This document shows, piece by piece, positions 17,211 through 26,503 of a stretch of DNA of 64,000 nt (its first letter is position 1; every line of letters begins with the position of its first letter). The translations under genes and the position numbers were made by a program. The notes beneath the pieces were generated by a model that made no database searches, had not been told where the DNA came from, and saw nothing but the letters and a program-made list of their open reading frames with translations. The stretch is from NCBI GenBank assembly GCA_046482545.1, contig JAWOEX010000032.1:128001-192000 (forward strand), read 5' to 3'. Source of the DNA: Candidatus Thorarchaeota archaeon. GTDB lineage: Archaea > Asgardarchaeota > Thorarchaeia > Thorarchaeales > Thorarchaeaceae.

Positions 17211-17286
17211 CCGTCCCCTATAGCTGAATATGAGTTATAACCGGATTTGATGTATCTATTGAAGTCCAGTGTGGGGAATATGTCCA

Positions 17287-18642
17287 ATGCCAGAGGAATC
17301 TGACTTGCTTATGTGTGCACTACAGAATCTTACTGTAGGTGTGGCAGTTCTTGATGGCAAAGGTCGAGTTATTTTTGCCAATGAGATGCTGGCTTCCATG
17401 TTAGATATAGCGCACGATGAACTCAAGGGTTCCACTTTCCCCCACATTGAGGCTTTGGAAAAAACAGCACCCACACAATTCAGGGCTGTAAACCGAGATG
17501 GCGATGAAAGAACACTCATGGCATCCGTATCGCCTATGGAGAGGGACAAGCACGACGTTTCGCCTCTCTTGGTTACCGTTAATGATGTAACAGAACAAAA
17601 GAAGAAAGAATACTCCCTACAACAGATGGTTCATGAGATTGTTTGCTTCCGAAATGTTGCCCAACTCTTTTCGCAAACAGATACACCTCTCGAACATGTT
17701 CTGAATACATTTGTACACATGATTCCAGAGGGGTGGGAGTACCCTAGCATTACTGCTGCTAGCGTTAAGCTTGGAGAAACAGTAGTTAGTTCTGCGAATT
17801 ACGTCGATACCGAATGGAAGCAGACTTCCAAGTTCTCCTATGGAGATGGACTAAACGGCACACTAGAAGTATGTTACCTTGAGAAACAACCTACAGTTGA
17901 TGAAGGCCCATTCAGCAATGAGCAACGGATGCTGATTGAAACCCTTGCGAATGAACTTGAGCGCTATATCCAACGGAAACGAAACGAGGATATCAGGCGC
18001 CAACAGCACCGTGAGCTAGAAACATACTCGAAGTTACTACGTCATGATTTGAGAAATGACCTTTCAGTGATTATTGGGAATCATGAAATCCTTGAAATGC
18101 TCCTCACCTCCCCAGACGAAATGCTGAAGGAAGTGCTGTCTTCTTCGGAAGCTGTATTCGAACGTATGATGAGTCTGCTCAAGGCCTTTGGAAGATCTGC
18201 AGAATCTATCGAACGACATGTTGCCACACTATTACGTGATGTTGCTTCTCAAGCAGAGAGAGCCCATTCGAACATATGTATTGATTTCAACATTGATAAA
18301 GAGGCCAAAGACCTTAGAATTGCTGGAAGTCGGCTTCTTCCGATGGTCTTTGAGAATCTGTTCAGAAACTCGGCTGTGCATGCCGGTGAAAATCCCCACA
18401 TTGATGTAATGTTATCCCGGGAAGGAAACAATGCAAAGATTGTTTTCACTGATGATGGACCTGGAATATCGGAAGAAATACAAGATAGGCTTTTCGAGAA
18501 GGGAGTCTCAACCCGGGGTGGGGGGCTTGGTCTTTATCTTTCAAAGCAAGTTATCGAAGCAACTGATGGCTCCATTGAATTAATGGACTCTAGAGAAGAC
18601 TCAGGGGCTTCTTTTAGAATTCTCGTTCCTATATCAGTATAG
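17287..18642 (+). CDS. PAS/GAF-like sensor histidine kinase
   Basis: PAS (GVAVLDGKGRVIFAN), H-box RHDLRND, N-box ENLFRNS, G1 DDGPGI and G2 GGLGLYL. Confidence 0.88.
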   Translation: MPEESDLLMCALQNLTVGVAVLDGKGRVIFANEMLASMLDIAHDELKGSTFPHIEALEKTAPTQFRAVNRDGDERTLMASVSPMERDKHDVSPLLVTVNDVTEQKKKEYSLQQMVHEIVCFRNVAQLFSQTDTPLEHVLNTFVHMIPEGWEYPSITAASVKLGETVVSSANYVDTEWKQTSKFSYGDGLNGTLEVCYLEKQPTVDEGPFSNEQRMLIETLANELERYIQRKRNEDIRRQQHRELETYSKLLRHDLRNDLSVIIGNHEILEMLLTSPDEMLKEVLSSSEAVFERMMSLLKAFGRSAESIERHVATLLRDVASQAERAHSNICIDFNIDKEAKDLRIAGSRLLPMVFENLFRNSAVHAGENPHIDVMLSREGNNAKIVFTDDGPGISEEIQDRLFEKGVSTRGGGLGLYLSKQVIEATDGSIELMDSREDSGASFRILVPISV

Positions 18643-18695
18643 CCGCACTGACTGTTGGTATGGTACGGGCATTATTAACAGTAGAAATAACCAAA

Positions 18696-19058
18696 TCATT
18701 CAGATACATACTTCTCAATGGCTTCAAAGAGCTGAGCACTACGAATCGGTTTGGTCAGAAAACCCACTGCGCCAGCTTCCATGGCTGCTGGTCTGATCGA
18801 TTCATCAGCGCTAACGAATAGAACTTTGGTGTTGTTATCCCTCTCTAGGATTTCGCGAGTAGCAGCAGCACCTCTCATCACTGGCATACGTTCGTCCATC
18901 AGAATGATATCTGGCTTCTCTTCCAATGCAACAAACTTCTCTACTGCTTCTGCTCCGTTATGAGCATGACCAACGACTTCGTGTCCCCTGAGCTCTATAA
19001 TACGTTCGAGCACTTTGTGAATGAATTTGTCATCATCTACAATCAAAACGCTTACCAT
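18696..19058 (-). CDS. Stand-alone response regulator receiver (CheY-like)
   Basis: LIVDDD, ILMDERMP, VSA and FLTKP. Confidence 0.92.
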   Translation of the reverse strand: MVSVLIVDDDKFIHKVLERIIELRGHEVVGHAHNGAEAVEKFVALEEKPDIILMDERMPVMRGAAATREILERDNNTKVLFVSADESIRPAAMEAGAVGFLTKPIRSAQLFEAIEKYVSE

Positions 19059-19059
19059 A

Positions 19060-20154
19060 TCAGGAATCCCCCGAATCTAAATCACTATCTTGTTCACTAC
19101 GGAGCAGGATAACGAAACTTGCTCCCTTAGTATGATCCCCTTCAACTCGGTCTTCGACTCGGATTTGTCCCCCATAATTTTCCAAAATCTTTTTGACCAA
19201 GGTCAGTCCCAACCCCAGTCCGAGAATACCTTGTCTTTTTCCTCGGATTTCCGCAAAAATTTCATCTTTCTCCTCATCGGGAATACCCGGTCCGCGATCC
19301 TTGATATATATTCGCAAGAAGGGGGTATGAGCGATTTTCTCTATTTCAATGTCTATCTCAACTTCTTCTCTCTGATCAAATTTCATTGAGTTATGTAATA
19401 GTGCAAAGAAAACGTCATCAAGAAATTCATCGGCCATGATGAAGTATTCGTTTTCATTGATGGTTGTATTGAGTTTCATCTCTTTCGTTGGAAAAGTAGA
19501 ATCGACTTCAGCGGCTGTTTCAAGTATGACCTTGCCCAAGTCTCTTACTTGCATGGAATGCCTTTCTTCTTCTATGACCGAAATCTTGCGAACATTCGAA
19601 ACGAGTTTTGAGGCTCTTTCAACCTCTTCGAGTCCCTCGTCTACAATTTCTCTGATATCACTTGACAAATCTGGACGGTGTATAATTAGCTCAAGTGTTG
19701 ACATAATCTCTTGATGAATGTTGGTAAGATCATGTATCATAAGATCCAGCATAAACTCTACCTTTTTCCTCTCATCTTCTACTCTTCTTTCTGCATCTCT
19801 TTTGTCCGAAACATCTCGATAATATCCCTGAGCAGCAACGATTTTAGATCCTGCAAAACGGGGGATGATATTTCCCTCCACAAAAACAAGTTCGCCGTCC
19901 TTAGTGACAAAAATGGAATCGAACCCTGTTACCTTCTCTCCATTCAAAACGGAATCCAGCATTTGCTTGTGTTTTTCTATTACTTCAGGAAAGATTATAC
20001 GATCAATAGTTAAATCGTCGATTTCTTCCTGCGTGTAACCGAGAGTATCTTTCCAAGTTTGATTAACGAATTCAAACGACCCATCAGGTTTTATACTGTG
20101 AATAAGACTAACTGAATCTTCAAGGATGTTCCTATATAGTTGTTCACTATCCAT
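19060..20154 (-). CDS. PAS-domain sensor histidine kinase
   Basis: PAS (FEFVNQTWKDTLGY), H-box HDLTNIHQ, HNSMKF, DRGPGIP and GLGLGLTLV. Ends 1 nt before the receiver gene. Confidence 0.88.
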   Translation of the reverse strand: MDSEQLYRNILEDSVSLIHSIKPDGSFEFVNQTWKDTLGYTQEEIDDLTIDRIIFPEVIEKHKQMLDSVLNGEKVTGFDSIFVTKDGELVFVEGNIIPRFAGSKIVAAQGYYRDVSDKRDAERRVEDERKKVEFMLDLMIHDLTNIHQEIMSTLELIIHRPDLSSDIREIVDEGLEEVERASKLVSNVRKISVIEEERHSMQVRDLGKVILETAAEVDSTFPTKEMKLNTTINENEYFIMADEFLDDVFFALLHNSMKFDQREEVEIDIEIEKIAHTPFLRIYIKDRGPGIPDEEKDEIFAEIRGKRQGILGLGLGLTLVKKILENYGGQIRVEDRVEGDHTKGASFVILLRSEQDSDLDSGDS

Positions 20155-20373
20155 TTTATTTCCAGACTCCTTACGCAGGACGAAAGATTCAATTCTGTTG
20201 AACAAAAATGAGAGTTGAATCTTCCTATTGAATGTTTTTCGTTTACCCTACGTTATATCTACTCATAAAGCGCTCGTTCACACGATAGAAACCGAGTTGA
20301 GTTGGTTCTTACCAACCCCAATTTGGTGGTCATTGTCGGTAACCATGACACTTGCAATATGCAACCTCATTAC

Positions 20374-24623: not shown

Positions 24624-25790
24624 GCTTCCCTTGTAAACCCCTTTAGAAGTAAACAATTGGATATCCAAACCAACTACTGGGCAGTTCTGACGATTTGGTT
24701 CCTTCCCTCTAGGATAGCGTATGCTGCAACACTACCCCCGCAGATTGTATATATAGAGGCAAACTCCCTTTTGCCAGCTCTATAGTTACTGTTCCAATCG
24801 GATTAGTATCGGACTGGGGTGATGTAGACTTACTCATTTTTTCCTCCTCAGCAGTTCTCGCATCAACACTCATCATGGATAGACTCGTTGACAGAATTGG
24901 TTTCGAGTTGATAGCAGGTGTGATGGTGGTTCTCATCATTTTGCTCTTTGTCTACACTGACACACCTTACGAAGTCTCTCACGGAAGAACTCTCCTTATC
25001 TTTGCAGTGCCAATTGTGATGGCGGCTTTTCTCATTAGACCGTGGACTTCGGCATTGATTGCCATTCTCAGTTCTGTTATGTCACTGTTTGCAGGCTATG
25101 CTTTGCCAAATATACCCGCTATAGTGACATTTCACATTCTTGCGCTTCTCGTTTGGAATCTCTCTTCCCACCTTGAAGATACGATTGAGCAGCTAGCCAG
25201 CTCGCAAGAACGACTTGAAAACCAGAAGAAGCAGGCAATTCTGTATCTTGACGTTTTTGGACATGATTTTGCTAATAACCTCTAAGCTATCCTATTGGCG
25301 TTGGAATTCATAAAAGCACATTCTACAAGTGAAGAGATTAGACCAGTTATTAATAATGCAATCGACACATTGCATGACAGCAATAGTCTGATTAGAGAAG
25401 CGAAGAAGTTTGAATCCATCAATCAAGGTGAATTGAAGCCTTTTGAGATCTGCAAAACATTGGCGATATGTGTGGACGTTTTCAAGAATGAATATCCTGA
25501 TATTGCTATTGAATCCGAGGGGAACGTATCGGAAGCAGTAGTCAAAGCAGATACGTATGTTGCAGACTTATTCTCAATCCTGCTTGAAAATGCGGTACAG
25601 CATAACCCAAAGCAAAGAAGAACGTCTGGGTGCAAATACAGGAGGAGTGTGGCGGCTATGTAGTATCTATTGCAGATAATGGACCAGGAATACCCGATTT
25701 ACGAAAATCAACTCTATTTGATTTATCACATAGATATGGAGGACTTGGTTTACATCTGGCCAAGCTAATAGTTGACAATTACAGAGAAGG

Positions 25791-26334
25791 CAAGTTTTAC
25801 AAAAATCCTAAAAAATTCGGGTACAAAAGTGTAAGATTTCCTGCAACTCCTCTCCTGACCACAAGGGGAGTTTATTAGGCTCAGTACGGGGCCCCGGTTC
25901 AGTAGGACGAGGCAAGTGGGCTAGTGTTATACACGAGGCACGCGGCCGAAGGCTGTGAGGTGGACTCGTTCCACTAAGCACAAGTTCCCACTCTCCACTA
26001 AAGGAACTCCATCAGGTTCCGGAGTGTCCGCGGCTGTTCACCTTGTCCGTAATGGACCTCCTCAGTTACGGCGACAATGCTGAGGTGGGTGATCATGACC
26101 ACGCCGTGGCAAGAACTGTGGAAGACCTCGCTGTCGCCGGAGTGATGTGGCGGAGTTCGACAGGAGACGATAGCAATGACCGCGGAAGGAATCCCATTCC
26201 TGTGAACGCGGACAAAGCCCCTGCTGACTCACGGGCCTACGGGTACACAGAGGGCGGCAACGCTGGCAGGGGAAGAGTGGAACACAGAAGTTTCAGGCAG
26301 TTGCCAAAACTGTAAGAAACAGGTTATGCAAAGG
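25791..26334 (+). mobile_element. Non-autonomous ~545-bp insertion (MITE-like; IS607/TnpB-derived suspected)
   Basis: Interrupts the kinase HATPase domain, and removal restores the frame. AAGG at both junctions (25787-90, 26331-34). Direct repeat CAAAA(G/C)TGTAAGA at 25824-36 and 26305-17. No transposase ORF. Exact ends ambiguous by a few nt. Confidence 0.75.
25880..26290 (+). ncRNA. Putative structured RNA inside the insertion (omegaRNA-like candidate)
   Basis: GC-rich island with many helices, G-U pairs valid only on the + strand, cUACGg (26237-42) and GCAA (26257-60) tetraloops, and long-range pairings. Boundaries approximate. Confidence 0.55.
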
Positions 26335-26503
26335 TACTATTGCGGTCGAGAATCGGGTTTATGGAGAACCTGGAAAGGGAACCAAATTCCGGGTATGGTT
26401 ACCGGCTCTTGATTCGGGGAAAGACCGGCTTCATGGAACAGCGAGTTAGAAATACTATAAATACTAGAATTCCGATGGATTATGGGGAGATTGCGTTTTA
26501 CAG

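Follow-up and report, generated by a model that had tools for sequence, protein, structure and literature searches.

What interrupted a membrane sensor histidine kinase gene of a Thorarchaeota archaeon, and which enzyme is likely to have moved it there? The gene lies in a 64,000-nt stretch of DNA (the window) of a 3.05-Mb genome, G000. Its reading frame breaks after IVDN, within the ATP-binding domain, and resumes at GTIAVENRV; that the frame is broken had been seen in the initial annotation. Orthologues in two genomes of the same genus (G001 and G002) are intact, colinear and 49–64% identical, with no gap at the insertion site; these uninterrupted genes establish the insertion as real. At this position the orthologues read D-K-Y-D-G-x-I-T-V-E-N-R, with exactly two codons from D-N to G-T, and the interruption has therefore added 547 bp: a 541-bp element plus one 6-bp repeat (Table 1). 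The 544-bp insertion with an AAGG/AAGG boundary that the initial annotation put forward leaves one codon too many relative to the intact orthologues; the two-codon spacing identifies its alternative, a 547-bp boundary, as the true one.

Two further lesions in the kinase, a TAA nonsense codon (25283–25285) and a −1 frameshift near 25614, indicate decay of the gene, whether it came before the insertion or followed it. In a public run, which may be the source sample, contigs cross the two junctions and show no difference. Two more PAS histidine kinases and a response regulator (17269–20205 of the window) are encoded 5–8 kb upstream of the broken kinase.

Table 1. Coordinates of the interrupted gene, of the inserted element and of the complete full-length parents (window positions unless a contig is named)
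Feature	Position	Strand	Remarks
Interrupted membrane sensor histidine kinase pseudogene (host gene)	24875..26449	+	intact orthologues 49–64% identical
Left 6-bp junction core	25780..25785	+	TACAGA; family consensus TCNNGA
Non-autonomous element	25786..26326	+	541 bp; left end + omegaRNA/tnpB tail + right end
Left end	25786..25840	+	83–94% identical to left ends of 8.2–8.3-kb parents
Candidate omegaRNA promoter	25871..25878	+	TATA-like TTTATTAG; retained in most short copies
TnpB omegaRNA scaffold region	25904..26327	+	71–81% identical to parents' tnpB tail + right end
Frameshifted tnpB relic	25934..26141	+	last ~70 codons, overlapping the RNA; residues 471–539 of 544-aa parent
omegaRNA 3' stem	26290..26320	+	GTTTC/GAAAC + CAGTT/AACTG; right-end motif TGTAAGA at 26311–26317
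Right 6-bp junction core	26327..26332	+	TGCAAA; 4/6 to left core, two transitions
Predicted flank-derived guide of the window copy's omegaRNA	26328..26347	+	kinase tail; start deduced from parents' leader guide
Complete parent C28	C28:141692-133385		8.3 kb; 8-bp perfect repeat
Complete parent C20	C20:236754-228517		8.2 kb; 10-bp perfect repeat
Complete parent G001:C133			7.65 kb; 6-bp perfect repeat

Copies, ends and full-length parents

Taken by itself, this insertion is an ordinary, somewhat decayed copy. The BLASTN check that had been proposed for it returned many copies with sharp shared ends: with the addition of a profile, we count 105 fragments in G000, 36 of them near full length. Similarity among the copies is mostly 70–90%, the closest pairs reaching 93–97%; these pairs, together with identical fragments at contig ends, point to recent movement.

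The right ends of the family terminate at ...TGTAAGA-AACAGGTTA, and the left ends begin 9–10 nt before TYTTACA. TGTAAGA is present in 64 of 82 right ends, where it stops 9 nt inside the right core; TYTTACA starts 9–10 nt inside the left core, and the first 4–5 nt of the left end are variable. TGTAA(G/A)A recurs in left ends at +45/46 and +56/57, one helical turn apart, and occurs once at the right end. Short direct repeats in helical phase are a feature of IS607 ends too, and on this point the initial annotation was right. As for the 13-bp direct repeat reported from the window copy, a 12/13 match exists (25824–25836 and 26305–26317), but only its TGTAAGA is family-wide; likewise, a terminal inverted repeat is absent, as had been stated, yet the ends in this genus bear a symmetric one in sub-terminal position (TYTTACA/TGTAAGA). 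The window copy has the sub-terminal TTTTACA (25795–25801) and one phased TGTAAGA (25830–25836), and the second phased motif is absent.

Each end is flanked directly by a hexamer with the consensus TCNNGA. In 23 of 36 complete copies from three genomes the left and right hexamers are the same (shuffles gave a mean of 3.8 and a maximum of 12), and they have their central NN in common in 28 of the 36, compared with 5.3 expected. The repeat is 6 bp long, sometimes 7–11 bp, its extension past 6 bp being weakly above chance (p 0.03–0.07). Each insertion leaves such a TCNNGA-type direct repeat, and precise removal of family copies restores host genes, several other ORFs as well as the kinase. Because a GG near both junctions occurs in just one of the 36 complete copies, the AAGG/GG junction is a coincidence of the window copy. 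For the window copy, the Tyr codon conserved at this place makes TAC-ARA the more likely original target, the transitions having come later.

The central NN also tracks the left-end subtype: it is shared by 60 of 171 close pairs, versus 24.6 expected. Among mismatched core pairs, the left core is the more canonical by 8 to 1, the single exception being a mis-set offset, and position 2 of the right core varies. Either the core is carried by the element, with targets chosen to match, or the large proteins described below differ in preferred hexamer and the cores decayed later. The only close empty alleles, those of G086 and G095 (versus G004), have the left core plus 3 nt in common with the filled site and no right end. 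In other genera the junction core is the same and the end motifs are TGTCAGA; the RNA end is found in 51 of 86 family genomes.

A circle-junction search in G000 found none, a pattern scan of the genome contigs for circle joints yielded chance-level matches only, and the contigs of the public runs examined (contigs only) contained neither an empty allele nor a circle joint. Metagenome contigs gave no circle joint either, a zero of no weight, as the left-end pattern by itself was also without a match there; a search for related loci came back empty too. An internal DNA guide for the core, as in IS608, was rejected: no copy has its own core elsewhere beyond chance. Some copies are arranged in compound structures. 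At G000:C22 202871-204534 a PAS-like ORF and an inner copy are enclosed by an outer left end and a right end far from it; the whole unit has a 9-bp TCGAGAATA repeat and shows that cargo can be carried between such ends. At G000:C20 181316-182445 and at C41 (about 25040-25600), two copies of opposite orientation stand back to back around one common TCAAGA core; these are re-insertions into an existing junction.

A weak TnpB match beside one copy opened the way to a parent, with a 544-aa TnpB whose gene overlaps the element's interior with its 3' end. Elements of 7.6–8.3 kb with the same ends encode a ~550-aa TnpB and, in a divergent ORF, a giant protein of 1400–1960 aa (aCas1, see below). The three complete parents (Table 1) have only the giant and tnpB in common; at most one extra ORF of ~200 aa, with no Pfam match, is present. 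Where seen (L002:7324-7941 (-), L016, L018, L020), that ORF is convergent on the 1400-aa giant subfamily only. G000 contains four full-length copies, all with divergent tnpB, an arrangement also seen in relatives. The short copies are internal deletions of such elements: the window copy is a parent's first ~60 bp fused to its tnpB tail/omegaRNA and right end, and copies so composed now occupy dozens of sites. As the initial annotation had stated, the insert contains no ORF for a transposase. Its expectation that longer relatives would carry tnpA and tnpB held for tnpB; the full-length copies with intact ends have no serine recombinase, and the giant Cas1-fold protein is present instead. We refer to the combination of a TCNNGA junction core, TGTAAGA/TGTCAGA end motifs, a ~550-aa TnpB and no TnpA as the type II chassis.

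The left ends of this genus consistently adjoin the tail of a C28-type giant (seven loci), which is likely to be their cognate enzyme. In the C20 element one giant has been replaced by another, the ends remaining unchanged. A conserved non-coding stretch of ~150 nt reaches from the left end to the giant's stop codon at G000:C28 141480-141620 and at six other loci. One aCas1-TnpB unit (L018:5766-12930) lies between a tRNA-Arg(TCG) and a repeat of this tRNA's 3' part, and tRNA genes also adjoin L003 (tRNA-Gly), L080 (tRNA-Lys) and L020 (a tRNA fragment right after the right end).

The omegaRNA and a proposed leader guide

The element's interior folds better on the tnpB sense strand than on the other (alignment energy −253 vs −220). 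In an alignment with 92% of its cells paired, 22 pairs show two-sided changes in at least three copies, as against 2–8 when the alignment is slid and at most 11 in column shuffles; in the scaffold region, compensatory changes preserve the structure. The RNA of the insert has no Rfam match at E up to 5, which rules out a group II intron, an SRP/RNase P RNA or another known RNA. This structured RNA overlaps the 3' end of tnpB and terminates at the element's right end, the arrangement by which an OMEGA omegaRNA is recognised, and its conserved start lies about 25 nt behind the TATA-like TTTATTAG. The 3' stem of the parents carries a GGTTCACTC loop that is deleted in 23 of 34 short copies, the window copy included. 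In the parent TnpB the RuvC-II is rearranged (D241, E402 and D436, with G at the canonical site) and conserved so in about 120 homologues, a pattern considered probably active (PMC10691335).

The parents contain a second copy of the RNA's 3' arm, between the giant and tnpB, which ends in GGTYAG (loci L002, L005, L078 and others; e.g., G000:C28 about 135210-135330). Since a Shine-Dalgarno-like stretch and a start codon follow immediately, too close for a promoter, we read this second arm as a guide. In 22 of 24 loci the next 10–17 nt repeat the TATA region ~95 nt upstream; the mean match is 12.4 nt, compared with 3.9 nt across loci and a permutation maximum of 6.6. The guide begins right after GGTYAG/GGTTAT, and its target is preceded by CTTMAT, from which a TAM of TTMAT can be read. 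We infer from these sequences that the leader is a short crRNA-like guide that would repress the element's own promoter.

Each leader also pairs with its own element's arm upstream of GTTCACTC more strongly than with those of other elements (−25.2 vs −22.1 kcal/mol, p <2e-5), and the cognate preference persists for the leader's variable part alone (p 2e-5). For this reason the hypervariable stretch before GTTCACTCA, which has been read as a possible guide (PMC10691335), looks from its sequence like an anti-repeat that would pair with the element's 3' arm and the leader RNA, rather than like a guide. TTMAT precedes none of 50 insertion sites, so that flank-derived guides, unlike those of IS605/IS607, cannot home to the empty site; homing of TnpB to empty sites is thereby ruled out. 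Guides with a TAM and at least 10 nt elsewhere in the genome amount to two 10-nt matches among 68, about the chance level, in addition to one own site.

One metatranscriptome covers the element body to a depth of up to 2300, versus 0–4 for the flanks, in contigs that give neither strand nor ends; as a sign of omegaRNA expression this is a weak hint, because the repeat is multi-copy and the contigs show no strand. Genus g6 (L292–L311) has a second kind of tnpB-less RNA module, in which the leader's 5' hairpin (GTAYGAGTTCA...) is fused straight to the omegaRNA start; these stand-alone modules have no clear TCNNGA ends and are set apart from this family.

The giant protein and the search for a transposase

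The giant, with more than 150 representatives at 50% identity, has no match in Pfam. In a structure model (pLDDT 75), a structural aligner returned Cas1 catalytic domains as the top matches of residues 1–230: 3god (Z 13.3, rmsd 3.5, 174 residues aligned), 8flj (Z 12.8), 4n06 (Z 12.5) and the casposase 6opm (Z 10.7), scores that call for care, as Z values near 13 do with helical folds. The match covers the helical domain only, the Cas1 dimerisation domain being absent from the giant, and it was found by the structural aligner only: Foldseek gave only the RecA fold, and the sequence-only tests for Cas1 (PF01867, Pfam and a PDB profile) failed. E101, H174 and R187 are invariant and D184 is acidic in 42 diverse homologues; from fold and motif taken together, E101/H174/D184 would correspond to the Cas1 triad. 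After the Cas1 domain comes a PD-(D/E)xK motif (invariant E358, D371, K397, Q475 and Y479 in model numbering; E-D-[ED]xK-Q-Y), where motifs and weak leads (PF13588, E 0.08; atlas, 0.76) suggest a nuclease domain. Residues 586–880 have a RecA/KaiC fold that lacks the Walker A lysine, i.e., a dead RecA-like domain, and the C-terminal 600 residues gave no match. I-F Cas1 structures are the giant's top fold matches; the parents' right ends (e.g., L005:892-961) have a GTTCACT...TAAGAAA that recalls the type I-F CRISPR repeat, a likeness that may be incidental. aCas1 is reportedly described by Makarova and colleagues (CRISPR J, 2020).

Profiles for resolvases and IS607 TnpA (PF00239/NF033518) have no match in G000, which is 98.9% complete, and no TnpA or resolvase was found in G001, G002, G003, G018 or G023; MAGs can lose multi-copy genes, and a cognate TnpA may be unassembled. 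G000 likewise has no match to the tyrosine recombinase (PF00589) or IS110 (PF02371) profiles, and the parents contain no IS110 DEDD gene. A single IS200-type Y1 transposase (G000:C24 6161-6457), apparently truncated, is not flanked by family ends. IS607 TnpA does abut the 3' end of the giant in G010 (twice), G021 and G022. Elements of this sister chassis, in which the giant rides true IS607 elements (L091, L092, L093 and L129; G010:C18, G021:C7, G022:C123), have GGG...ACAGC...TAGACA left ends, a different right end and a 700–745-aa TnpB only 28% like the parents'. Every intact TnpA inspected from the 86 family genomes stands behind GG-type or other IS607 ends, and none behind type II ends; behind one type II left end (TCTGGA-type) come the decayed C-terminus of an IS607 tnpA and then the giant's tail (L128:2990-3270, G004:C36). 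Among the 51 genomes with the RNA end, aCas1 occurs in 44 and any resolvase domain in 18, counts to be read with the RNA end as part of the aCas1 element itself and with the genomes as kin, not independent; the copy-rich G000–G003, G096 and G101 have no resolvase domain. On the tree, giants of one chassis are mixed among those of the other, and this, with the swap in the C20 element, shows the giant behaving like an exchangeable module. With no intact TnpA behind these ends among those inspected, it is unlikely that an IS607 TnpA acts on them today; complete elements contain one candidate only, the giant.

The insert is a shrunken, non-autonomous offshoot of a Thorarchaeota aCas1-TnpB element built on the type II chassis, and on balance we lean towards the giant as its transposase. 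That role, already proposed for aCas1 in a published survey (PMC10691335, section 9), is somewhat more likely than not, and no firmer than that because the giant also rides true IS607 elements. The initial annotation had called the insert a non-autonomous IS607-like element moved in trans: it is non-autonomous and has to be mobilised in trans, and the IS607 assignment falls, there being no TnpA, no GG and a 6-bp TCNNGA repeat. We hypothesize the following course. The phased end motifs would be bound by the giant from one of the four full-length copies in G000; its PD-(D/E)xK nuclease, its Cas1 domain or both would release the ends, which would then be joined by a Cas1-type transesterification, staggered by 6 nt, to a palindromic TCNNGA site. 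Such staggered integration would duplicate the target hexamer. Given that left core and left-end subtype go together, targets that match the donor core are probably preferred, in a homology-matched exchange, over the duplication of just any TCNNGA. From each copy an omegaRNA could still be made, its guide newly taken from the flank, for a TnpB supplied in trans.

An IS607-type TnpA might instead move the mini-element in trans via the phased TGTAAGA motifs, with serine exchange around the central NN and the giant as mere cargo. This we consider unlikely, even with an array at 11-bp phasing on the left and few motifs on the right, as in IS1535 (PMC6188088), with motifs that by eye resemble the TGTCYA of the IS607-type sister chassis, and with the tnpA relic of G004:C36. 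The giant's presence in true IS607 elements and the link between central NN and left-end subtype, which a requirement for matching donor and target cores would produce, also fit a TnpA. Against it stand the six genomes with neither TnpA nor resolvase, the want of an intact TnpA behind any type II end among those fetched from the 86 genomes, the single GG junction pair in 36, and an identity that spans 6 bp instead of 2, with a variable position 2 of the right core where an element-borne TC would be fixed. As an ancestry of the chassis, IS607 is plausible, given that same relic and the giants in true IS607 elements.

It is less probable again that some other enzyme is at work (a divergent tyrosine recombinase with a 6-bp overlap, a host recombinase or the IS200 Y1), with the giant and TnpB as passengers. 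A 6-bp matched overlap in which mismatches are tolerated and the left core is more canonical would fit overlap exchange, and the genome does have one Y1 transposase and the element a hairpin at its right end; but PF00589 and IS110 are without a match in the genome, the Y1 gene does not have these ends on its flanks, none of the full-length elements contains such a gene, and Y1 elements insert 3' of a fixed motif and leave no repeat. That the copies are dead relics of a lost autonomous element (e.g., an IS607 ancestor), with nothing to move them now, strikes us as very unlikely. The 70–90% similarity of most copies, the 4/6 repeat of the window copy in a gene with two further lesions and the public-run contigs free of empty alleles and circle joints would suit decay; the perfect 8–10-bp repeats around TnpA-less full-length elements, the identical fragments at contig ends, the 97% pairs and the compensatory RNA changes do not.

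A wider reading can be entertained, tentatively and with more doubt than belief: the copies would be the trace of an active, Cas1-catalysed class of transposons outside the casposons, in which an IS607 chassis lost its TnpA to a captured Cas1-nuclease-RecA fusion and came to use a new chemistry with a matched 6-bp TCNNGA core, with a two-RNA TnpB, leader self-repression and a guide library of mini-copies. The tracr-like 3' arm of the omegaRNA might then be displaced, via the GGTTCACTC loop, by the crRNA-like leader that represses its own promoter. This would amount to an array-less CRISPR-like state, and the mini-copies would serve as a scattered library of single-guide RNAs, most of them beyond the reach of the switch.

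Significance and comparison with known systems

Cas1 is thought to descend from a transposase, and to our knowledge casposons are the only tested example of Cas1-type transposition. The mini-copies give base-exact ends, a target (TCNNGA), a natural 541-bp substrate and a record of spread without IS607 TnpA; with ends, target and substrate so defined, transposition by aCas1 becomes directly testable. The leader guide yields TnpB's TAM and guide start without an experiment, and it suggests that a TnpB moving together with Cas1 has a natural crRNA/tracrRNA-like division and represses itself under RNA guidance, a matter relevant to the origins of type V CRISPR. In a lineage close to eukaryote origins, the copies knock out host genes, the kinase and several other ORFs among them. 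In the literature covered, which is incomplete, no publication gives these ends, the TCNNGA core or the leader guide.

The aCas1-TnpB loci of Asgard archaea (Cas1H-Asgard-1/-2) were already predicted to be transposons by Altae-Tran et al. 2023 (PMC10691335), without defined ends. Common to that survey and to our parents are a diverged Cas1-fold giant beside tnpB, flanked by repeats, and a GTTCACTCA motif after a hypervariable stretch downstream of tnpB, a motif deleted in 23 of 34 short copies, including that of the window; the survey gives no ends, target motif or miniature derivatives. So far as the same paper describes stand-alone omegaRNA loci (citing Altae-Tran 2021), these too are effector-less mobilised RNA modules beside effector-bearing copies, and differ from the present family in its three to four dozen full copies, its TnpB with a rearranged RuvC-II and a TAM at 0 of 50 sites.

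With IS607, IS1535 and ISC1926 (PMC6188088) the element shares the lack of terminal inverted repeats, short phased motifs mainly on the left, tnpB/omegaRNA on the right and precise target restoration. It differs in its 6-bp TCNNGA repeat where IS607 has GG without duplication, in the absence of TnpA from three complete parents with intact ends, and in a TnpB TAM, TTMAT, that is not the insertion motif; the sister chassis in the same family is true IS607. The element is thus somewhat like an IS607 mini-element (phased motifs, right-end RNA, mobilisation in trans) and falls outside IS607 on TnpA, GG core and TAM logic. The IS200/IS605- or IS110-type boundary that the initial annotation kept as an alternative is set aside: IS200/IS605 is at odds with the 6-bp repeat, with the lack of a fixed 5' motif and with a Y1 gene that is unlinked, and IS110/IS1111 with the absence of a DEDD recombinase gene (PF02371 against G000, and in the parents).

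Casposons (families 1 and 2; PMC9939771) resemble the element in a proposed Cas1-fold integrase, direct repeats at both junctions and a palindromic target. The element is not one of them, as it has neither PolB nor terminal inverted repeats, only a 7-nt sub-terminal inverted motif. Furthermore, its repeat is 6 bp as against ~15 bp, and its targets are dispersed whereas casposons use one tRNA site; its aCas1 lacks the Cas1 N-terminal domain and is fused to a putative nuclease and a dead RecA fold, and the element carries TnpB.
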